Below, in pieces: positions 7,934-25,142 of a stretch of 43,407 nucleotides of DNA. The position numbers and the translations under genes are program-made. The notes beneath the pieces are model-generated. The model did not search any database. It was not told the origin of the DNA and saw nothing but the letters and a program-made list of their open reading frames with translations. Source of the stretch: Gemmatimonadota bacterium (GTDB lineage Bacteria > Gemmatimonadota > Gemmatimonadetes > Gemmatimonadales > GWC2-71-9). The stretch is from the NCBI GenBank assembly GCA_041482775.1, contig JBGPEJ010000001.1, positions 1-43,407 of the forward strand. Reading direction: 5' to 3'. The first letter of the stretch is position 1; each line of letters opens with the position of its first letter.

Positions 7934-9530
7934 GATCGACCGCGGTCTTCAGGAAGGCAATCCCCCCCGAAACGCACGCCAGCGAGTAGCGCCCCGGCGC
8001 CCACTTCTGCCGGGGCAGCAATGGAATCCGCCGGAGGAAGGTGATGGCCCGGCTCCCCTGGGCCAGCGGGAGGGACTGGGGACCGCTGTCGGCCAGCAGC
8101 GTGTTGCGTGCGCCGGTGATGCGGCAGGAGAAGTTGAGCGCGCCGGCGGCCGGGTCGGTGGGATGGTCGAGCAGCGCCGCCACCCACAAGGAGCGGACCT
8201 GCGGCGCCCGGAAGGAAACGTCGGCCACCGCTTCGTCGCCGGGCGGATCGTCACCCCCCTCGTAAATCGCGGAGGCCAGGAACCGGGCGTCCAACTCGGG
8301 GAGGTCCGGCTTCCCCGTCATCTCGAAGCGATCCGTCACCGCGCCCTTGGGCCCGATCCGGCATTCAACCCGGTAGGCGCCGCGCAGCCGCGGTGCATCG
8401 GCCGAGCCGACCGGATCGGTCCCGGCAATCGCCCGGTCCTTTTCGCGCAGGTCACCCTTGATCGGGAAGCCGATGGTCACCCCCGCCGGATCGGTGGCAA
8501 TGCAGGCAAAGGTGGTCGAGTCCCCCGCCGACCGCACCGGCATCACCGCCTCGGCGTAGAGGGTGTCGGCCGAGCCGGCCTCGAAGCTCGCGGCGTAGGC
8601 GGGTGGCGCGGCATCACCGCTCTTCCGCCGGAAGAAGCGGAGCCGGCTTCCCGGCGGCGCCGCGAGGGGAGCGCCGCCGTCGAACACTTCGAAGCTTCCC
8701 GCAGCCATCTTCTCACCGTTGTTCCAGCAGGACACCTGGTAGACGCCCACCGGCCAGTGGCCGGGCGCGCTCCATCCGATCCCCTGGGTGTGGACCGAAC
8801 CGGTCCATCCGGCCGGCACCTGCCGCTCCACCTTGACCGGATGAATACTGTTGTCGGGGAAGACGTACACGCACTCGACGATGAAGCTCACCGGAGTCGC
8901 CACCTGCGGGTAGACCAGCCCGAACTCGGTCTTGATCCAGCCCGCGGTGCGCGCGTCGAACCGGTTCCCGTACTGCCGGATTTCCAGCGGCAGCCGCTCG
9001 GCCAGGCTCTGGAAGAACCGGAGGTGGGTCATCGAGGCGCCCAGGTTCCGGACCGCGGGGGCGTTCTTCACCACCTGAAAGCCGGCGGTCGCCACCACCT
9101 GCCCCTCTTCCAGGCAGGACACCTGGTAGCTCCCTTCGGGCCATTGCCCCCGATCCTGCGAGCCCCAACCGGAGGTGTGATACGAGCCCACCCATCCCGG
9201 CTCGATGGCGCCGTGAATCAGCGGCGTTCGGGGCTTCCCGTCCGGCCCCTCGAAACGGCACTGGACATCGAACTCGGTCCGCTTGGCGGCCTTGGCGTAT
9301 TCGAGCTCGAGCTCCAGGTTGATGAATCGGGTGGTCAGCGCATCGAAGGTGGTGGTGACGACCCGGCTCTTCCGGTCGGGCACGTTGCCGGCGCTCTCGA
9401 AGAACCGGATGGCCACGACGCGCGCCTTGAGGCCGTTGAACGGACCCCGCCCCAGGGTGACGGTGGGCGCCTGGGCAGGGAGCGGCACGGCGGACAGGAG
9501 AAGTACCAGGCTGGTGCGACGGAATCTCAC
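7923..9530 (-). CDS. Secreted protein of unknown family with four tandem ~120-aa repeats
   Basis: The start is GTG at 9530, overlapping the upstream regulator's stop as GTGA. The signal peptide is MRFRRTSLVLLLSAVPLPAQA. Four repeats end in a W-P/A-x-G-x-Y-x-V/L-x-C motif (see findings). Confidence 0.75.
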   Translation of the reverse strand: MRFRRTSLVLLLSAVPLPAQAPTVTLGRGPFNGLKARVVAIRFFESAGNVPDRKSRVVTTTFDALTTRFINLELELEYAKAAKRTEFDVQCRFEGPDGKPRTPLIHGAIEPGWVGSYHTSGWGSQDRGQWPEGSYQVSCLEEGQVVATAGFQVVKNAPAVRNLGASMTHLRFFQSLAERLPLEIRQYGNRFDARTAGWIKTEFGLVYPQVATPVSFIVECVYVFPDNSIHPVKVERQVPAGWTGSVHTQGIGWSAPGHWPVGVYQVSCWNNGEKMAAGSFEVFDGGAPLAAPPGSRLRFFRRKSGDAAPPAYAASFEAGSADTLYAEAVMPVRSAGDSTTFACIATDPAGVTIGFPIKGDLREKDRAIAGTDPVGSADAPRLRGAYRVECRIGPKGAVTDRFEMTGKPDLPELDARFLASAIYEGGDDPPGDEAVADVSFRAPQVRSLWVAALLDHPTDPAAGALNFSCRITGARNTLLADSGPQSLPLAQGSRAITFLRRIPLLPRQKWAPGRYSLACVSGGIAFLKTAVDLTR

Positions 9531-10183
9531 GACCGGGCCTTCCGTTCCTCTTGCTCACTCATGCGGATCAGGATGGCGTAGCGCACCAGACTCCACTCCG
9601 AGTCCATGCCCAGTGCCTTGCGCGCCGCAACGCGGTGGAAGGTCACCGTGTGAGGGCTCACGTTGAGCTCCCGGGCAATATCCGCGGTGCGCTTTCCCTC
9701 CCCCAGCATGCGCACGATCTGGCGCTGCCGGGGAGTGAGCTGCGACAACCCGAAGCCGATATCGGCGGACCCCGCGTAGGTCGCATGCTTGGGGACCAGC
9801 TCGGAGACGAACCGCCGGCCGGCCAGCACTTCCTCCAGCGCGATTTGAAGCTCGGTGATCCCGGCGTCCTTGGGCACGAAGCCGTGCGCCCCCGACTGCA
9901 GCGATGCGTCGGCCATGATCCGGTCGGCATGCATGGTGACGATGATGACCTTGGTCTCCGGCGACTCGACCCGCAGGTCGGCGATGATCTCCAGTCCGCT
10001 CCGGTCCGGAAGGCTCAGGTCGAGGAGCACCGCGTCGGGCTTGAGCTCGAGGCAGGCGGGGAGCACCGCCTCTCCGGTGGTGCAGGTCCCCACGATGTCG
10101 TACTGATCCTGGAGCGCCAGGCGGAGACCCTCCAGCAGCAGCTGGTGGTCGTCCACCAGCAGGAGCCGCGGTCTGGCCGTCAT
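9527..10183 (-). CDS. NarL/LuxR-family response regulator
   Basis: 218 aa. The receiver domain shows LLLVDDHQLLLEGL...AVLLDLSLPDRSG...GAHGFVPKD. The LuxR HTH is LTPRQRQIVRMLGEGKRTADIARELNVSPHTVTFHR. The ATG at 10183 overlaps the kinase stop as ATGA. Confidence 0.9.
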   Translation of the reverse strand: MTARPRLLLVDDHQLLLEGLRLALQDQYDIVGTCTTGEAVLPACLELKPDAVLLDLSLPDRSGLEIIADLRVESPETKVIIVTMHADRIMADASLQSGAHGFVPKDAGITELQIALEEVLAGRRFVSELVPKHATYAGSADIGFGLSQLTPRQRQIVRMLGEGKRTADIARELNVSPHTVTFHRVAARKALGMDSEWSLVRYAILIRMSEQEERKARS

Positions 10184-10944
10184 TTCGGGAACACCGCGCG
10201 CACCGTGGTGCCGCGTCCCGGCCCCGAGGTGATCGTGAGGGTGCCGCCGGCCAGAGTCGCCCGTTCCCGCATCCCGATCAGCCCGAGGCCGTCGCTGGGC
10301 CGCCGCTCCCGGGGCTCGAAGCCCCGGCCCTCGTCGGCCACAACGAGCTCCGCTCCGGATGCTCCCTCGGCCAGTGACAGCCGGGCCTGCTGGGCTCCCG
10401 AGTGGGTGGCGACGTTGCGGAGCGCCTCCTGGGCAATCCGGAACACCGCGAGCGCGCGGTGGGCGTCGAGCTGGGTGGGGCCGTCGGGCAGCCGGGTCTC
10501 GACCTGCACGTGGTAGGCGCGCTCGACCTCGCCGGCCAGGCCGCCCAGGGCGGCGTGCAATCCGCCCCGGTCGATCAGCGCCGGGTGCAGCCGGTGGGCC
10601 AGGCCGCGGAGGAAGACGCCCAGGTCCAGCATTTCCTCCTGGATGGCGCTGACCCGGCCGGACTGCTCGGTGCTCAGCGGCGGCGGGGTGGTGCGGACCT
10701 CGTCGCACTCGCGCCGGATGAGGGCGATGCGCTGCAGTGCGTCGTCGTGCACCTCCCGGGCCACCCAGGCCCGTTCCTCCTCTTGCGCTTCCAGAAGTCG
10801 GTGGGCGTACGCGCGGTGCATTGCCACGTAGCGCCGCTGGTAGATCACCAGCGCGGCGCCGAGGGCGGAGAGGAGGATGGCGACGGCCAGGATCCCGGCG
10901 ACGAACGTCCACCAGAGGGTGGAGGTGGAGGCGGAATCGGGCAC
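10180..10944 (-). CDS. Histidine kinase core (HisKA_3 + HATPase_c); the 5' boundary is uncertain because of a frame break
   Basis: The H-box is AREVHDDALQRIALIRRE, the G1 box VADEGRGF and the G2 box GLGLIGMRERA, preceded by one TM helix (WWTFVAGILAVAILLSALGAALVIY). The coordinate 10944 is a possible GTG start. More likely this is the 3' part of one gene continuing from 11561 in another frame. Confidence 0.7.
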   Translation of the reverse strand: MPDSASTSTLWWTFVAGILAVAILLSALGAALVIYQRRYVAMHRAYAHRLLEAQEEERAWVAREVHDDALQRIALIRRECDEVRTTPPPLSTEQSGRVSAIQEEMLDLGVFLRGLAHRLHPALIDRGGLHAALGGLAGEVERAYHVQVETRLPDGPTQLDAHRALAVFRIAQEALRNVATHSGAQQARLSLAEGASGAELVVADEGRGFEPRERRPSDGLGLIGMRERATLAGGTLTITSGPGRGTTVRAVFPK

Positions 10945-11561
10945 AACATGCCTCGGGCGATGAAGACGAATGCGACGACGTCGACCAGGGATTGGATCTG
11001 GTATGCGGAGGAAACTAGCTCGGAATGTTCCGGGAGGAGAATCCGGGCGATCGGGTGAAGCCCGGCCGAGGATCCGAACCGCAGGCACAACCCGAGGCAG
11101 ACCCAGAACCAATCATTCGCCGCCAAGTTGCCCTCTTCACGTCGAATCCGCACCAGCAGGGTCGTGGCACTCACCGCAAGGAACAGCAGAGCCTTGAGCG
11201 GGCCAGCGACCGGGCTGAAGCTGCTCGTGCCTTCCACGAACACGAGCAGAAGCACCCAGATCACTGCGAATGTGGGGATGGTCAACCGAATCGCTTGTCG
11301 CAGGACTCCGTCGCGATGCCAACAGGACAGGGCGCTCAGCAGCGCCGCCACCTCCAGAGGGGTGGATAGCAACGGCACCCAGTGATTGTTCCGTCGCTCG
11401 AGGGCCAGCGCGAGCATGATCGCATCGGCCGCCAACAGAATAAGGGCCCAGAGCGCAATCCACCGGCGGGCGGTCGGCAGCGACCGCCCGTATCTCAGGG
11501 CCGCGAGAGGCGGAAGCGCCTCCGCCGCCGCTCCGGCGTACAGCTCCCAGGGAAGCGCCAA
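10845..11561 (-). CDS. Polytopic membrane sensor module, probably the 5' part of the histidine kinase in a different frame
   Basis: About six hydrophobic helices (for example WIALWALILLAADAIMLALAL and IPTFAVIWVLLLVFV). The last ~30 residues (PIPPPPPPSGGRSSPGSWPSPSSSPPSAPRW) look like out-of-frame read-through across the kinase TM helix. Confidence 0.6.
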   Translation of the reverse strand: MALPWELYAGAAAEALPPLAALRYGRSLPTARRWIALWALILLAADAIMLALALERRNNHWVPLLSTPLEVAALLSALSCWHRDGVLRQAIRLTIPTFAVIWVLLLVFVEGTSSFSPVAGPLKALLFLAVSATTLLVRIRREEGNLAANDWFWVCLGLCLRFGSSAGLHPIARILLPEHSELVSSAYQIQSLVDVVAFVFIARGMLCPIPPPPPPSGGRSSPGSWPSPSSSPPSAPRW

Positions 11562-11567
11562 GGGCCT

Positions 11568-11882
11568 CTAGGAATTGAGCGGGTTGGCGGTGCCGCAGAA
11601 TGGTGGGCAGTAGAAGTGCTCGTCTAGGAGAACCCCGTTGACCAGATCGTTCCCCGCCTGATCCACTCCGGCCAGAATGACTGTCGGGGCGTTGGTTGCG
11701 TTGCGCCCGAAGTAAAACCGCACCCCGGCAACACCCGGCTGGGCCAGCAGCTCGTCGACCGACTTGCGCAGAAAGAGGCCGCCCTTCACGGCGTCCTTCC
11801 CGGCACTGTCGCGGTGGCTCTTGGTCTGGGCCGCGGCCGCCTCGAGGGGGATCCGATGGTCCTTGGGATTGGGAAGTGGCAT
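11568..11882 (-). CDS. Small hypothetical protein (104 aa; alternative GTG start at 11945 gives 125 aa)
   Basis: The ORF ends 6 nt before the sensor gene start. The sequence MPLPNPKDHRIPLEAAAAQTKSHRDSAGKD...GVRFYFGRNATNAPTVILAGVDQAGNDL...HFYCPPFCG has normal, non-shadow composition. I recognise no family. Confidence 0.55.
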   Translation of the reverse strand: MPLPNPKDHRIPLEAAAAQTKSHRDSAGKDAVKGGLFLRKSVDELLAQPGVAGVRFYFGRNATNAPTVILAGVDQAGNDLVNGVLLDEHFYCPPFCGTANPLNS

Positions 11883-11980
11883 AGCGCGCTCGCTTATGAT
11901 GTGGGAAACCTGCTGAGTGACCGAAAGCGAGGCATAACCTTGCACCCCCGCCGCCGGAGGGCAAGTGGGTCCCTCCCCCT

Positions 11981-12047
11981 ACCTATAACATGTTCTAGGT
12001 ACCTACCTAGAACATGTTATAGGTCGTAGACCTATAACATGTTCTAG
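11981..12047. repeat. Three copies of a 20-bp AT-rich element in forward/reverse/forward orientation (candidate operator array)
   Basis: Copy 1 is ACCTATAACATGTTCTAGGT (11981-12000). Copy 2 (12005-12024), ACCTAGAACATGTTATAGGT, is its exact reverse complement. Copy 3 (12030-12047), ACCTATAACATGTTCTAG, repeats copy 1 over 18 nt. Spacers are 4 and 5 nt. Confidence 0.85.
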
Positions 12048-12102
12048 CTTGTCCCCCCCGGTCGCTCCGCGAGACATTGCCTTGGTCCCGAGGAGGCACT
12101 CA

Positions 12103-12516
12103 TTGCAGTACCCGCCGCATCGCTCCGGTTTGGCCTTCGTCCACGTGGGATTTCCCGTCGTGGGCCCGGGCGAGCGCACCTCGGTCAAGGTTCAGGTCAA
12201 GAACTTGGGCGTGCAGCCCGCGAAGAACGTCACGGTGGCGCTGGCCGACCCCGCCGAGTGGGGCTCCCAGGGCATCGTGATGCAGCACCTGGGCGACCTG
12301 ACCCCCGGGGCCGAGATCGGGGCGGAGCTGGCGCTTCAGTATTCGATTTCCGATGCGTTGCGGCTGGGGTCGCTCACCGTGGCAGTGTTCCCCCGTGACC
12401 AGGCCATCAACTGCGACGAGGGGGATCTTCCCGGCGACCCCGTCCCGCCGATCAGCGGGCGCTGGACCACGGCCGTCCACCCCTCCCGGACCACCCTCCG
12501 CCCCCACTCCGAGTAG
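12103..12516 (+). CDS. Hypothetical protein with a CARDB-like beta-sandwich signature, no signal peptide
   Basis: AGGAGG (12091-12096) lies 6 nt before an in-frame TTG at 12103; the track ORF starts at TTG 12049. GERTSVKVQVKNLGVQPAKNVTVALADP resembles CARDB/DUF11-type domains. A weak hairpin plus T-run follows the ORF. Confidence 0.45.
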   Translation: MQYPPHRSGLAFVHVGFPVVGPGERTSVKVQVKNLGVQPAKNVTVALADPAEWGSQGIVMQHLGDLTPGAEIGAELALQYSISDALRLGSLTVAVFPRDQAINCDEGDLPGDPVPPISGRWTTAVHPSRTTLRPHSE

Positions 12517-16700: not shown

Positions 16701-18932
16701 ATGCCCCGCTTCTCCCGGTTTCACCGACAACACCTGATCCACAGATTTCACAGATTACACAGAATTGACAAGGTTGTTCATTTCATCTGTGCCATCTGTG
16801 TAATCTGTGGATTGAGCAGTTCGCCGCTCCTGGCCCAAACGAAGCCAACCGCGCGCGGCAACGTCCCCGGTGAGTGGCGGGCGTGGGGCGGCGACCTCTG
16901 GAGCACCCGGTATTCTCCGCTCGACCAGATCAACGCGAGGAACTTCGACTCGCTGAAGGTGGCCTGGCAGTGGAACGCGGGAGCCTTCGGCAGCGACGAG
17001 TATTACCGGACCACACCGCTCTACGCCAACGGCCGTCTCTTCACCGTGGCCACCACCCGCCGAGTGGCGATGGCGCTCGACCCCGCCACCGGCGAGACCC
17101 TCTGGATGTGGCGCCTGGACGAAGGGATCCGGTGGCAGAAAGCGCCACGCCAGTTTGCCGGGCGCGGGCTGGCCTATTGGACCGACGGCAAGGACGAACG
17201 GGTCATTGTCGTGACGCCGGGATACCACCTGGCCTCGCTGGACGCCAGGACCGGCATCCCCGACCCCAAGTTCGGCACCAACGGCGTGGTGGATCTGATG
17301 CCCGGGCTGGGGCTCCCGATGGTGCCGCTCGCGGTCGACGACTCGGGCCCGCTCATCATCAGCGACGCCGCGCCCGCCCGCCAGGCGCGCCCGGGGGAAA
17401 TCTGGGACCCGATCAAGAAGATCGGCGCCGACGGGACCATTGGAATCGATCCCACACTGGGCGAAATCGCCAACAGCTCCCCCGCCATCGTCGTGAACGA
17501 CGTCATCGTGGTGGGAAATTCCTCGATTCACGGCTACTACCCGATCCGCTTTCGCAACATCCCGGGTTTCATCCGGGGGTTCGACGTCCACACCGGGAAG
17601 CAGCTCTGGAAATTCAGCCTGATCCCCCAGCCGGGAGAGTTCGGCGCGGAGACCTGGCTCAACGGCTCCAAGATCGGGACCGAAGGGGTGGGCAAGAACG
17701 ACGCCTGGGCCACCTACTCCGCCGATCCTGGGCTCGGCCTGGTTTACATCCCGGTGGGCATGCCGCTGCTGGACGAATACGGTGGCCACCGGCCGGGAGA
17801 CAATCTCTTCGGCACCAGCCTGGTGGCGCTCGACGTCAAGACCGGGAAGCGGCGCTGGCACTTCCAGATGGTGCACCACGACATCTGGGACTACGACAAC
17901 CCGATGTCGCCGAACCTCCTCGATGTCACGGTGGATGGGCGGCCGCGGAAGATCATCGCCCAGACCACCAAGCAGGGCTGGGCCTACGTCTTCGACCGGG
18001 TGACCGGTGCACCGATCTGGCCGATCGTGGAAACGCCGGTGCTGCCGAGCGAGGTGCCGGGGGAGCGCACCTCGCCCACCCAGCCGGTTCCCAGCAAACC
18101 GGCGCCGTACGCGCAGCAGGGGCTGCTGGAAACCGACCTGATCGACTACACCCCGGCCATCAGGGATTCGGCGCTCAAGATCGCCAAGCGCTGCCGCATG
18201 GGGCCCTGGTTCATCCCGGCCTCGCTCGCCGACGGCACCGGGGCAAGCGGCTACAAGTGCTCCTGGTACGCGCCCGGCGCCGGCGGCGGCGTCAACATCG
18301 ACGGCGGGGCGGCAGCGGATCCGGAAACCGGGATGATGTACGTCGGAGCTATCAGCGGGCTCAGCACCATCCAGGTGCAGAAGGATCCCTGCTCCGAATT
18401 CCGCTACAGCTCACCCCGCGACAACTGTGGATTGATCGGCGCGCTGCCGCCACCGCCCGGCTACCAGCCGCCGGCCAGCCGAGGGGGAGAATTCGAGGGG
18501 CGCGGCGCGCTCTCCCAACTGGGCGGGGTCTCGATCCTCAAGCCGAAGCCGTTCGGCGGCATCACCGCCTACAACCTGAATTCGGGAGACAAGGCGTGGT
18601 GGGCCCCCAACGGGGGGACGAGCCCGGTAACCAGCACCTCCCCGCTCTTTGCCGGAGTCACCCTGCCACCAGCACCCGGACGGGGGCTGGCACAGGTGAT
18701 CACGACCAAGACGCTGGTGATCTACGGTACCGGCCGGAGCGGCGGGGTGCCCGACGCGGAGCCGAAGCTGTTCGCGCTGGACAAGGCCACCGGGAAGCCG
18801 GTCGGCGCGGTCGAGATTCCCGGCCGGACCACCGCGGTGCCGATGACCTTCATGCACCAGGGCCGCCAGTACATCGTCTTCGCAACCGGCGTGGGAGAGA
18901 ACACCTCGCTGGTGGCGCTCCGGCTTCCCTAA
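16701..18932 (+). CDS. PQQ-dependent dehydrogenase (soluble glucose/alcohol dehydrogenase-type 8-bladed propeller)
   Basis: 743 aa. GAGAGGTGA acts as SD 7-8 nt before the ATG. EWRAWGGDLWSTRYSPLDQIN, repeated W-docking blades and QMVHHDIWDYDNP resemble quinoprotein active-site regions. Confidence 0.9.
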   Translation: MPRFSRFHRQHLIHRFHRLHRIDKVVHFICAICVICGLSSSPLLAQTKPTARGNVPGEWRAWGGDLWSTRYSPLDQINARNFDSLKVAWQWNAGAFGSDEYYRTTPLYANGRLFTVATTRRVAMALDPATGETLWMWRLDEGIRWQKAPRQFAGRGLAYWTDGKDERVIVVTPGYHLASLDARTGIPDPKFGTNGVVDLMPGLGLPMVPLAVDDSGPLIISDAAPARQARPGEIWDPIKKIGADGTIGIDPTLGEIANSSPAIVVNDVIVVGNSSIHGYYPIRFRNIPGFIRGFDVHTGKQLWKFSLIPQPGEFGAETWLNGSKIGTEGVGKNDAWATYSADPGLGLVYIPVGMPLLDEYGGHRPGDNLFGTSLVALDVKTGKRRWHFQMVHHDIWDYDNPMSPNLLDVTVDGRPRKIIAQTTKQGWAYVFDRVTGAPIWPIVETPVLPSEVPGERTSPTQPVPSKPAPYAQQGLLETDLIDYTPAIRDSALKIAKRCRMGPWFIPASLADGTGASGYKCSWYAPGAGGGVNIDGGAAADPETGMMYVGAISGLSTIQVQKDPCSEFRYSSPRDNCGLIGALPPPPGYQPPASRGGEFEGRGALSQLGGVSILKPKPFGGITAYNLNSGDKAWWAPNGGTSPVTSTSPLFAGVTLPPAPGRGLAQVITTKTLVIYGTGRSGGVPDAEPKLFALDKATGKPVGAVEIPGRTTAVPMTFMHQGRQYIVFATGVGENTSLVALRLP
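16737..16812. repeat. Imperfect 28-bp inverted repeat built from three in-frame 9-bp units per arm, inside the PQQ-dehydrogenase signal-peptide coding region
   Basis: The left arm (16737-16764) is ATCCACAGATTTCACAGATTACACAGAA. The right arm (16785-16812) is ATCTGTGCCATCTGTGTAATCTGTGGAT. 24 of the 28 positions are complementary. Confidence 0.8.
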
Positions 18933-22310: not shown

Positions 22311-22799
22311 TCAGGAGTCCCGGTTGGAGGAGCCCGTCGCGGCCGTCGCCATCCTCGCCGCCCGGTGGATTCCCTGCCGGATCCTCAGGTAGGTGGCGCA
22401 GCGGCAGAGATTCCCGTTCATCGCGGCGTCGATGTCGGCATCGGTCGGCTTCGGCGTCCGGGCCAGCAGTGCCGCGGCCGACATGAGCTGCCCCGCCTGG
22501 CAGTAGCCGCACTGCGGGATGTCGAGCTCTTCCCAGGCGCGCTGCAAGGCATGGGTCCCCTCGGGCGAAAGCCCTTCGATCGTGGTGACCTCCGCCCCCG
22601 CCACCGCGGCGATCGGGAGCACGCACGACCGGGCTGCCGCTCCGCGGATGTGCACCGTGCAGGCGCCGCACTGCGCCACGCCGCAGCCGTACTTGGTGCC
22701 CTTGAGGTCGAGTACGTCGCGCAGCACCCAGAGGAGCGGCATGTCCGGCGCAACGTCCACCGTGGCCGACTTCCCGTTGACCTTGAAGGTGACGCTCAT
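22311..22799 (-). CDS. (2Fe-2S)-binding small subunit (IorA/CoxS-like)
   Basis: 162 aa starting [10 protein letters not shown], with cluster motifs [20 protein letters not shown] and NLCRCATY. The ATG at 22799 overlaps the upstream stop as ATGA. Confidence 0.9.
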
Positions 22800-23863
22800 G
22801 GTCTGACGTACCTCCGGAGTGTGCGCGGACCGACCTCCGCGCCGTAAATATTCCCTCTCCCATCCACCGCGATGCCCTCCGCCGCGCTGGTGCCGGTGGC
22901 GTGCTCCGCGGGGTCGGGAATGAACGCCCAGACCGCACCGTCCTTGGCGCTTCCGATCCGGATTCCCCGCTTCCATTCCCCGTGCGCCGGAGCAACCGAG
23001 CCCGACTCGGAGTCGGTCACGTAGATCGTGTCGTTCCGGATGTAGATCCCGCTCGGCCGGCTGAACTGGAGCCATTCCGCGAGGAATCGGCCGTCCTGGT
23101 CGAAGATCTGAATCCGGTTGTTGCTCCGGTCTCCCACGAAGAGACGGCCCCGCGAATCCATGGCCAGTGCGTGGGGCTGGTCCAGCTCCCCCGGACCGGT
23201 GCCCTTGCTGCCGAAGGCCTTCAGGAACTTTCCGTCCTTGCCGAACTTGAGAATCCGCGCGTTGGCCCCCGGCGCCGACGAATGCCCCTCGGCTACGAAT
23301 ATGTCGCCGTTGGGGGCAACCAGCACGTCGTTGGGCTGGGTGAAGTACTCCGGCTCCCGGGCCCCGCCGGCCTTGCCGAGGGTCAGGAGCAGTGTGCCGT
23401 CGGGACTGAACTTGAATACCTGGTGGCCCTTGGGCCCGGCCGCCGCGGCCGCCTCCCGCTGCGCGGCGGTCCCGGTGCAGGCGCAGTCGGTCACCCAGAG
23501 GTTGCCGTCCCGGTCCACGAAGATCCCGTGGGGGGAGAGCAGGATGCCCGAGCCGAAGCTCTTCACCAGCGTCCCGGCCGAATCGAACTTCAGAATCGGA
23601 TCGAGATTGGAGCCGGCGCAGCTGTTGGTGCCACAGCGCTCCGCCACCCACACGCTTCGGCCGTCCCGGTCGATCTCGACCGCGCTGGTGGAGCCCCAGA
23701 TTCTGCCCGGCGGCATCCGGGCCCAGCCTTCGATGGTTTGGTAGGGATTCGGAAGGTCGTTGACGGGGCGGGTGCCGCTTCCCCCTTGGGCCAACACCCG
23801 GGAGCCGAGGCCGGCCAGCGTTCCGGCCATGAACGCCGACCTGAGCGCTGTCCATACTCTCAT
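22796..23863 (-). CDS. NHL-repeat beta-propeller protein, secreted (paralogue of 13648-14874)
   Basis: 355 aa with signal [29 protein letters not shown] blades are visible ([65 protein letters not shown]). Confidence 0.85.
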
Positions 23864-24009
23864 GCTGTGGAACGTACTGCCGGATCGCGGCGGCTGTCAC
23901 CCTGTTCCCCGCCACCGACCGCGGCGAGGCCCTCGGCCCGGAGCAGGTTGGCGGCGTCCCCTGGCGCCCGAATGCACCCCATCTGGGAGTCCTCGAAATT
24001 AGGCGATTT

Positions 24010-24080
24010 CGGCCCCAAAACTGGCACTTTTCGGCAAAAATTGGCAAATCTTAGCCAAAAAACTCCGAAAAACGGCAAGA
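24010..24080. promoter_or_regulatory. Phased A-tract block (intrinsically curved DNA) in the 357-bp divergent intergenic region
   Basis: A-tracts lie at 24017-20, 24036-40, 24046-48, 24057-62 and 24068-72. Their mean centre spacing is about 10.3 bp, each tract is preceded by a GGC/GCC-type triplet, and the local GC is far below the window norm. Confidence 0.45.
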
Positions 24081-24220
24081 GTCAGAACCCCGCGAAATCG
24101 GCCGGGAATGGGCGCCCAGGTCCCCCCGGGCGCCCACTTCTCAGCGGCTCCGACTGGGGCCACGTGCGGCGACTCCCGGGTCGGTAGATTGCAGCCCGCC
24201 GCACCACCCGGAATGGACCC

Positions 24221-24517
24221 ATGAACGTTGAGCACGACATCTCGGGCCATCGCTTCGTCGTTCGGATGCCGGAGGGGGAAGGCAGCTTGGTTTATGCGGT
24301 TGCCGGTCCTCAACTGCTGGATCTGCTGCACACCGAAGTCTCGCCGAGCCTGCGGGGCCGCGGTATCGCCGACGCGCTGGCGATGGCCGCCGTCGAATAC
24401 GCTCGGCGAACCGGCGCGAAGATCATCCCTACCTGCCCCTTCGTGCGGGGCTGGCTGGCCCGGCACCCAGAGAACAACGACCTCCTCGCCGCAAGACCGT
24501 CCCGCGGCGCGCCCTGA
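24221..24517 (+). CDS. Small GNAT-like N-acetyltransferase (YjdJ type)
   Basis: 98 aa. HTEVSPSLRGRGIADALAMAAVEYARRTGAKIIPTCPFVRGWLARHPE matches the single-domain GNAT_YJDJ pattern. Confidence 0.8.
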   Translation: MNVEHDISGHRFVVRMPEGEGSLVYAVAGPQLLDLLHTEVSPSLRGRGIADALAMAAVEYARRTGAKIIPTCPFVRGWLARHPENNDLLAARPSRGAP

Positions 24518-24602
24518 CCACACGGGACGACGCCAGCCCCCGCTCGCCACCCGTGCCGTCCGATGGTATGTTCGCGGTTCCTCTCTTTCCGGTTACCCTC
24601 CC

Positions 24603-25142
24603 ATGAAGCGTGTATTGAGCCTGGTGGCACTCGCTTCCCTCACTGCCGTTGCCACCCTCCCAGCGCAGCAACCGGGCTCCGGTCCGCTCGCCTCGGCGCT
24701 TCGCGCCGCCTTGACGCGGGTGACGGCGAACATGCCGGGTGCCGCCGACCTGATGCCGGCCGAGAAGTACGGGTTCAAGCCGACTCCGGAGCAGATGAGC
24801 TTCGGAGAGATCATCGCCCACGAGGCGCAGTCCAACGAGACGCTCTGCGCGGCGATCGCCGGCAGCGCGGCGACGCCGTCGGAATCGGCTGCCGGTGCAA
24901 CGGCCCCCAAGGACCAGCTGGTGGCCCGCCTCAAGAAATCCTTCGACTACTGCGGGACCGTCATCGCCCAGCTCAATGAGGGCACCCTGGGTGACTCGGT
25001 GCCGTTCTTCGGCGGCCGCAAGGCCACCCGGGCCCGGGCGGTAATCGTCCTGGCGCAGGACTGGGCCGACCACTATGCCCAGGCCGCGATGTACCTGCGT
25101 GCCAACGGCATCCTCCCACCGTCGGCGCGTCCGCGGCAATAG
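24603..25142 (+). CDS. DinB-family protein with signal peptide
   Basis: 179 aa with signal MKRVLSLVALASLTAVATLPAQ. FKPTPEQMSFGEIIAHEA and DWADHYAQAAMYLRANG parallel the protein at 13108-13620. Confidence 0.8.
   Translation: MKRVLSLVALASLTAVATLPAQQPGSGPLASALRAALTRVTANMPGAADLMPAEKYGFKPTPEQMSFGEIIAHEAQSNETLCAAIAGSAATPSESAAGATAPKDQLVARLKKSFDYCGTVIAQLNEGTLGDSVPFFGGRKATRARAVIVLAQDWADHYAQAAMYLRANGILPPSARPRQ

Follow-up and report, generated by a model that had tools for sequence, protein, structure and literature searches.

A tandem array of 20-bp dyads upstream of a two-component operon in Gemmatimonadota, a probable operator of the co-encoded NarL/LuxR-type regulator

Described operator arrays and the dyads of the window

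Regulators of the GerE type (NarL/LuxR family) bind dyads of 16-20 bp. Adjacent dyads are also found in phage lambda, where OR1, OR2 and OR3 are three dyads about 23-24 bp apart, centre to centre, between back-to-back promoters. Here we analyse an array of three 20-bp dyads in a 43,407-nucleotide stretch of a Gemmatimonadota bacterium (contig JBGPEJ010000001.1, positions 1 to 43,407; called the window below, at its full length). The array lies at 11981-12049, between a minus-strand operon that encodes a histidine kinase and a NarL/LuxR-type response regulator, and a divergent gene on the plus strand. The array very likely serves as a cis-regulatory element to which some protein binds. It is probably (about 0.65) an upstream operator, used by the co-encoded regulator to activate both its own operon and the divergent gene.

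DevR (DosR) of Mycobacterium tuberculosis, a member of the NarL subfamily, has tandem Dev boxes at the divergent promoters tgs1-Rv3131 and narK2-Rv1738, with boxes of 18-20 bp at -42.5 and -63.5 and cooperative activation of the divergent promoters (PMC3177182). The present locus resembles this arrangement in having a response regulator of the same family, two to four adjacent 18-20-bp dyads in one intergenic region with two divergent promoters, a proximal box near the -35 (at -42.5 in DevR, with the next near -63.5) and weak target promoters. Its sequence bears no relation to the Dev boxes (on the position weight matrix (PWM) of the array, a Dev-box consensus reaches -34 bits), and it also differs in the strength of the copies, all of which are strong here whereas DevR has one primary site with weak secondary boxes, and in spacing, which is 24-25 bp (34 bp in two loci) and lacks the helical phasing of sites about 21 bp apart. 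Cooperativity and binding belong to DevR, while the array described here is known from its sequence.

The lux box of LuxR in Vibrio fischeri is a 20-bp dyad, ACCTGTAGGATCGTACAGGT (PMC4444344). It is of equal length, shares the outer ACCT/AGGT and a central GATC, and fits the array consensus at 16/20 positions (P about 0.004 for random palindromes, the comparison being post hoc); activation by a GerE-type helix-turn-helix (HTH) dimer from just upstream of the -35 is a feature of LuxR that would match as well. However, its mismatches fall at the best-conserved positions (5/16 and 8/13), it scores only 11.5 bits on the array PWM, and the sites described here come in arrays. The local regulator, with a phospho-receiver and no acyl-homoserine-lactone-binding domain, does not qualify as a member of the quorum-sensing group, and the likeness is confined to the DNA motif. 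The NarL heptamer, TACYYMT, was also compared with TACCTAT of the window; its leading T is not conserved in other loci and the match was given no weight.

KstR, a TetR-family regulator of mycobacteria, offers a resemblance of another kind, since the 14-bp core of the window, TA(K)AACATGTT(M)TA, fits its operator TnnAACnnGTTnnA (PMC1995591). KstR is, however, an actinobacterial repressor with sites that overlap promoters, the orthologous arrays do not keep its AAC/GTT triplets, and there is no TetR gene in the vicinity; the full fit is limited to sites of the window and of one related locus (L002). Membership of the KstR/TetR group was rejected on these grounds and the resemblance is that of a sequence look-alike only. 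The statement in an earlier note on this DNA, made from the sequence without database searches, that no described regulator site has this sequence therefore needs qualifying, as the core formally fits the KstR motif and the consensus fits the lux box at 16/20. The array shares with lambda OR the three adjacent dyads in a short spacer that serves two divergent promoters. The lambda sites overlap core promoters as a repressor switch, whereas here two of the three dyads are placed upstream of the -35; the proteins belong to unrelated families, and there is no phage context at the array.

Taken as 20-mers, with no strand assigned, the dyads lie at 11981-12000 (site 1, ACCTATAACATGTTCTAGGT, the operon-proximal site), 12005-12024 (site 2, ACCTAGAACATGTTATAGGT) and 12030-12049 (site 3, ACCTATAACATGTTCTAGCT), 24 and 25 bp apart from start to start. 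Sites 1 and 2 score 34.0 bits each on the PWM, and site 3 scores 31.4 bits. Site 2 is the exact reverse complement of site 1, 24 bp away, the two together forming 21-nt arms of 100% complementarity, and copy 3 is identical to copy 1 over 18 nt. The CTAKAACATGTTMTAG cores at 11983-98, 12007-22 and 12032-47 are the 3 matches in the window, with none elsewhere at up to 3 mismatches; shuffled windows gave a mean of 0.06 matches, and 0/100 shuffles reached 3. The triple element that the earlier note had described, with the relations of its copies and its 24/25-bp spacing, is thus borne out by pairwise comparison and by the shuffles. The array, with a GC of 0.36-0.37 against 0.69 overall, also has the lowest GC of any 67 bp in the window. 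The alternating orientation of the copies, which had given that note its title, is by contrast no conserved property: the closest relative (L018) has three direct repeats, neither orientation is preferred in the other array loci, and the alternation in the window is a mere choice of T or G at motif position 6.

The family consensus, from 31 sites in 10 loci, is ACCTAKnASATSTnMTAGGT. Positions 3-5, 8, 10-11, 13 and 16-18 carry 1.3-1.7 bits each. CTA/TAG, A8/T13 and A10/T11 are near-invariant, while 6/15 (K/M), 7/14 and 9/12 (S/S) are variable, these pairs being complementary within the site in 22/31, 18/31 and 25/31 sites, respectively. This is the pattern expected if a symmetric protein reads each half-site, and not that of a conserved hairpin. 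The dyads have the form of NarL/FixJ (GerE-HTH) sites, about 16-20 bp long with conserved outer half-sites. Copies within a locus tend toward a common centre, which is ACATGT in the window and AGATGT in L018, so that the same motif position differs between these two loci in all three copies. This indicates that the copies are homogenised by slippage or conversion (concerted evolution) and do not mutate independently. A palindrome across the junction of adjacent copies, TAGGT-N4-ACCTA, was considered as the true site. It was rejected, both because the spacer is not constant (CATG, CACG, GGGC, or 14-17 nt) and because isolated 20-bp dyads occur (L007, L010 and the sites at the divergent promoter of L014, L019, L040 and L053). 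A PWM scan of the 43-kb window and of the flanks of related loci brought up no further match scoring 16 bits or more, against a null expectation of 0.03 per 43 kb.

Conservation of the array and its position relative to promoter-like blocks

An exact-match scan for CCTAKAACATGTTMTAGG through 185,579 species genomes (596 Gb) returned 11 matches, all of them intergenic and 3 in Gemmatimonadota. The scan covered this species-representative collection, to which the source genome does not belong. Orthologous loci (numbered with the prefix L) were obtained from the contigs of homologues of the small protein encoded first in the operon, and from a tandem-pattern scan of 241 million metagenome records. 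The latter found arrays with this centre next to this operon only (L040, L053, L054); most of its matches were ACCTAGGT-type microsatellites or unrelated dyads, for example beside a ParA gene. Such an unrelated pair of 20-bp dyads, ACCTATCACGGCTGATAGGT and ACCTATCAGCCGTGATAGGT, lies at 5279-5325 of L047 (also in L024, L037 and L038, all high-GC metagenome contigs), about 140 bp upstream of a ParA-like ATPase gene, and probably belongs to a plasmid-like element, as its partition site or as an operator.

Upstream of the small-protein gene, two to four tandem dyads are present in 12/15 informative distinct loci, these being the window, L018, L002, L012, L059, L014, L019, L021, L022, L040, L053 and L058, from Gemmatimonadales metagenome-assembled genomes (MAGs) and metagenomes; the contig of L058 begins inside the array, and only the proximal site is visible. 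Conservation in orthologous loci, which the earlier note had left as a check, is therefore found, and at a fixed position. Where measured, the small proteins of array loci are 56-83% identical to that of the window, the highest value being that of L018, whose repeats are spaced 24 bp apart. The order small protein, multi-pass membrane protein, HisKA_3 kinase and NarL/LuxR-type regulator is kept, with kinase and regulator genes downstream wherever the contig extends far enough (the window, L002, L015, L019, L054 and L058). L002, a Gemmatimonadales MAG, is syntenic, with NHL-DinB-GNAT genes, two dyads 24 bp apart, and then the genes for small protein, membrane protein, kinase and regulator. Homologues of the divergent gene, which encodes a NEW3-like domain, are found in L018, L012, L014, L019, L040 and L053.

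On either side of the array there are conserved promoter-like blocks, recognised by their conservation only. For the operon promoter (P_op), on the minus strand, a putative -35, TTGCCC, lies at 11959-11964, with CTTGC invariant in an 8-locus alignment, and a -10-like element, AAGGTT, lies at 11936-11941 within a conserved GCAwsGTT, of which GCA..GTT is invariant in the alignment. For the divergent promoter (P_div), on the plus strand, the putative -35 is TTGTCC at 12049-12054 and the putative -10 is GACATT at 12073-12078; in 7/7 loci with the divergent gene, TTGnnn overlaps the last base of the distal site (offset -1, placing the site centre near -45) and is followed after 17-18 nt by GA[CG]ATT.

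The position of the dyads relative to these blocks was measured in the 11 array loci with enough upstream sequence, and is nearly constant. The proximal site is present in all 12 array loci, with 15-16 nt from its end to CTTGC and its centre 100-110 nt upstream of the small-protein ATG. In all loci measured, 20-21 nt separate the TTGCnn hexamer from GTT, and the ATG comes some 50-60 nt past GTT, with a GAGAG resembling a ribosome-binding site just 5' of it. The second site is 24 bp from the proximal one in 9/11 loci measured and 34 bp away in L021 and L022; some pairs are spaced 27, 34 or 36-37 bp. If CTTGC and GTT are read as a -35/-10 pair, the centres of successive sites fall near -62, -86 and -110, site 1 of the window being centred at about -61/-62 of the putative P_op. 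Site 3 of the window, whose last base overlaps the putative -35 of P_div, is centred at about -45 of that promoter. L002, L021 and L022, which do not have the NEW3 gene, carry two sites only and no TTGnnn-N17/18-GA[CG]ATT block. Since the distal site with this overlap is found in the seven loci with the NEW3 gene and is absent from these three, copies 1 and 2 would serve P_op, and copy 3 would serve P_div. A sigma-54 reading of the CTTGC block was rejected, because its GG-N10-GC spacing is found in L021 and L022 and is off by one or absent elsewhere (by eye), and because the regulator is not an enhancer-binding protein.

The distances from the array to the two genes need one correction. The earlier note had placed it 36-100 bp upstream of the operon, counting from GTG 11945; because the small-protein gene begins at ATG 11882, the array is 99-165 bp upstream. 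The 56 bp given for the plus-strand open reading frame (ORF) agree with its likely start, TTG 12103, behind GAGGAGG.

Isolated sites of the same kind were found in another Gemmatimonadota MAG, with two perfect dyads (L007 and L010), each 16 nt upstream of a -35 position. The promoters have a good -10 (TAGAAT and TATGAT), and the site centres, at -62.5 and -61.5, match the geometry of the operon promoter. They face a response-regulator/HD-GYP-like gene and a PAS hybrid kinase gene, respectively (domains by eye), which suggests a small regulon. A perfect palindrome, CCTAGAACATGTTCTAGG, is also present in high-GC actinobacterial genomes and one deltaproteobacterial genome (L001, L005, L006, L008 and L011), where it is far commoner than composition predicts, by a rough estimate. 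In L011 a P450 gene begins 63 bp downstream of it, and in L006 it adjoins a SnoaL/ketosteroid-isomerase-like gene (gene identities by eye), and the actinobacterial sites are consistent with KstR-type operators.

The probable binder and the competing explanations

The candidate binder is the NarL/FixJ-type response regulator encoded at 9527-10186 on the minus strand, with Pfam Response_reg and GerE HTH domains. Its closest solved homologues are NarL, DevR, RcsB and VraR, with DevR second-best. In 4 regulator orthologues, which are 66-71% identical to that of the window, the phospho-acceptor D56 and the recognition-helix residues T180, V181, F183, H184, R185, R189 and K190 are invariant, the helix reading TV(T/S)FHR..RK in all. 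The motif differences between the loci of these four are at degenerate positions, and all four helices are alike, although n is only 4. The regulator is the sole DNA-binding protein of the conserved gene cluster, and no second one was found among the larger ORFs scanned in the 43-kb window.

We propose that the three dyads are tandem operator sites for a dimeric transcription factor, in an untranscribed spacer between two divergent promoters, and that the binder is most likely the NarL/LuxR-type regulator in its phosphorylated form, encoded four genes downstream, with one dimer on each 20-bp dyad. From sites 1 and 2, near -62 and -86, it would switch on the weak promoter of the small protein-membrane protein-kinase-regulator operon, amounting to positive autoregulation. 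From site 3, centred near -45 and adjoining the -35, it would do the same for the divergent NEW3-domain gene. Which protein binds, where the promoters lie and whether regulation is positive are all inferred from sequence comparison. Positive autoregulation is favoured because the regulator is the only DNA-binder of the cluster, because its helix is invariant, and because DevR and the lux box provide precedents. An operator array for a dimeric HTH protein, with the co-encoded regulator as the obvious candidate, was also one of three readings in the earlier note, and the comparison lends it support: 12/15 loci keep the array along with the regulator's operon, whose promoter region holds it at a constant position, the outer half-sites are conserved while the centre is degenerate, and conserved promoter-like blocks adjoin the array. 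The array would add a new motif for an uncharacterised two-component system; as a switch it is well supported, and of a kind that is ordinary for an autoregulated two-component operon.

Several observations tell against this proposal. In L017, L056 and L057, which form one sub-lineage, there is no array, and the genes for the small protein and the membrane protein are kept; array-based autoregulation would therefore be dispensable there. No promoter was listed at the flanks of the array by an E. coli-type promoter scan, the -35 of P_op falling below threshold, which is why the promoters are read from conservation, and with 5-6 of 12 matches to the E. coli consensus they are weak by that standard. 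The spacing of 24-25 bp is about 2.3 helical turns, so that neighbouring dimers would lie on different faces of the DNA, unlike those at DevR boxes, where phasing matters. The dyad geometry, taken alone, would fit dimeric factors of the CRP/FNR or TetR type as well.

This last point leads to the alternative that the dyads are operators of a factor encoded elsewhere, such as a TetR/KstR-like repressor or a CRP/FNR-type regulator, of which the operon is merely one target. Sites of the form 5-N6-5 centred near -62 and -45 are typical of CRP/FNR-type activators, and the dyads can be read in that way (CTAKn-N6-nMTAG), with centres near those positions. The window core TAKAACATGTTMTA fits the published KstR motif (PMC1995591), the identical 18-mer stands beside P450 and SnoaL/ketosteroid-isomerase-like genes in high-GC actinobacteria (L011 and L006, by eye), and isolated sites occur away from the operon in the other MAG (L007, L010). 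Nevertheless we consider a factor from elsewhere unlikely, if the most substantial of the competing ideas. The KstR-defining triplets are not conserved, because most orthologous arrays have centres of AGATCT or similar; there is no TetR, CRP or other regulator gene in the window or the conserved neighbourhood; and multi-copy arrays of the motif are found at this operon only. A global factor should moreover leave more sites in the 43 kb and in about 40 kb of related contigs, and none of at least 16 bits is present. Alternatively, the same regulator may bind, with the array acting mainly as a repressor site or insulator that shuts off one or both divergent promoters. Site 3 does overlap the first base of the putative P_div -35, three dimers side by side might block the 67-bp spacer or bend it into a loop, and LuxR-type proteins repress where their box overlaps core promoter elements (PMC4444344). 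We regard this as improbable, in that sites 1 and 2 lie entirely upstream of the putative P_op -35, with a gap of 15-16 nt, both putative promoters are weak, as activator-dependent promoters should be, and the isolated sites of L007 and L010 are likewise at -62, the classical position for activation.

Action at the level of RNA, with copies 1:2 and 2:3 forming mutually exclusive leader hairpins in an attenuator-like switch, had been put forward in the earlier note and is now very hard to maintain. The region, if transcribed, would fold at -34.8 kcal/mol (z = -6.8), with minimum-energy and centroid structures using alternative copy pairings, yet this carries little weight, because any adjacent palindromes give it. 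The array lies upstream of both conserved -35-like blocks, the terminator scan found no U-tract terminator, and Rfam gave only sub-threshold look-alikes of miRNA hairpins. Nor is the pairing conserved: inter-copy complementarity of 19-20 of 20 is found in the window only, L018 having direct repeats and L014 reaching 14-15 of 20, while L021 and L022 have two copies 34 bp apart, and within copies the positions 6/15, 7/14 and 9/12 are often unpaired. We find least to recommend the idea that the array takes no part in regulation and is a site of recombination or partition or, as the earlier note had also considered, the remnant of a mobile foldback element or miniature inverted-repeat transposable element (MITE). 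It is true that the array is AT-rich and palindromic within GC-rich DNA, and that tandem ACCTAT...ATAGGT pairs also stand beside a ParA-like gene in unrelated contigs (L047). However, there are no other copies in the 43-kb window, the exact 18-mer is as rare in genomes as stated above and always intergenic, and no transposase, recombinase or ParA/ParB gene is nearby. The three matches in viral contigs come from a single low-GC phage family and are irrelevant. The array instead keeps an orthologous position across lineages whose small proteins have diverged to the identities given above, in fixed register to the promoter-like blocks.

Genes of the locus and the meaning of the array

The first gene of the operon (11568-11882, minus strand) starts at ATG 11882 and encodes a protein of 104 aa with no Pfam or NCBIfam match. 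Its family, of 100-108 aa, has 17 homologues only among 5.8 billion proteins, and all 16 aligned homologues begin with M(A/P)LP. The invariant features are H9, LAQPG, C92-P-P-x-C96 and L102-N103; the C-terminus, LNS, varies little, with S104 in at least 90% of sequences. The AlphaFold model has a pLDDT (predicted local distance difference test score) of 59 and is not interpretable; no HTH is apparent in it, which at this quality carries no evidential weight. The second gene (10845-11561, minus strand) encodes a multi-pass membrane protein of about 238 aa with some six hydrophobic segments (by eye) and no family assignment, and equivalents of 235-243 aa follow the small-protein gene in L012, L021, L057 and L059. 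The list of operon genes in the earlier note, correct in its kinase and regulator, had passed over this gene between the small protein and the kinase.

The kinase gene (10180-10970, minus strand, start approximate) carries Pfam HisKA_3 and HATPase_c domains and a single N-terminal hydrophobic helix, and overlaps the end of the membrane-protein gene. Its matches to the NarX/UhpB/LiaS-like models of NCBIfam are below cut-off. Orthologues are 258-263 aa as called in the collection, and 279 aa by our own ORF call in L054. The membrane-protein and kinase ORFs overlap out of frame by up to 268 nt (10845-11112), in a segment that begins with a long C tract (by eye), and the same two-frame arrangement is present in L002. 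Since orthologous kinases are each called with their own start, the overlap is probably real, of about 100 nt, and not a frameshifted fusion. A 535-aa protein with no family match, the one listed as secreted in the earlier note, is encoded after the regulator on the minus strand.

On the plus strand, the divergent gene (12103-12516) has a TTG start and encodes a 137-aa protein with an NPCBM_assoc/NEW3-like domain (Pfam E = 1.6e-6); it is followed by GNAT and then DinB genes. In L017 (3038-3072), L056 (1-107) and L057 (221-321) the small-protein operon stands directly behind a same-strand Fer2-MoCoBD (xanthine-dehydrogenase-like) operon and the NEW3 gene is missing. The short spacer of L057 holds about six tandem copies of the 7-mer GTGAGAC, and that of L056 three of GCGAGTA.

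The array had been called the only strongly AT-rich block of the locus. This goes too far, as 16742-16808 (GC 0.37) and 24017-24083 (0.40) come close. The first of these belongs to a block at 16737-16812 with two 27-nt inverted arms, 89% complementary and separated by 22 nt in which TTGACA occurs; the left arm consists of three 9-bp CACAGATTn units and the right arm holds two or three complementary ones. The block falls just within the ORF listed for a pyrroloquinoline quinone (PQQ)-dependent dehydrogenase (16701-18932), at the 5' end of an ORF whose real start is probably downstream, and looks like another operator or repeat element. The other block, at 24000-24083, has A-runs with repeated TGGCA/CGGCA/TTGGCAAATCTTAGCCAA motifs and lies between an NHL-repeat gene (22796-23863, minus strand) and a DinB_2 gene (24228-25142, plus strand).

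The composition of the operon allows a more far-reaching speculation, to which we attach little credence, namely that Gemmatimonadota have here an agr/com-like signalling circuit that induces itself, with a lux-box-like array between divergent promoters driving the whole cassette. The parts would be the small protein with its CPPxC and LNS, the multi-pass membrane protein, a one-helix kinase with no sensor domain and the LuxR-type regulator. If this were so, the role of signal or co-sensor would fall to the small protein or to a product processed from it, the array would be the node of positive feedback, and the parallel change of its three copies (ACATGT in the window, AGATGT in L018) would reflect rapid homogenisation of a feedback element.

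To our knowledge, next to nothing has been learned of how transcription is controlled in Gemmatimonadota, a phylum that is widespread in soil. The locus would provide a testable module, with a defined 20-bp motif, a candidate regulator and two candidate promoters, and ties a lineage-restricted small protein and a membrane protein to a two-component system. A related MAG adds two candidate members of the regulon (L007 and L010, by eye), and P_op and P_div may give a first hint of what the -35 and -10 elements of Gemmatimonadota look like.

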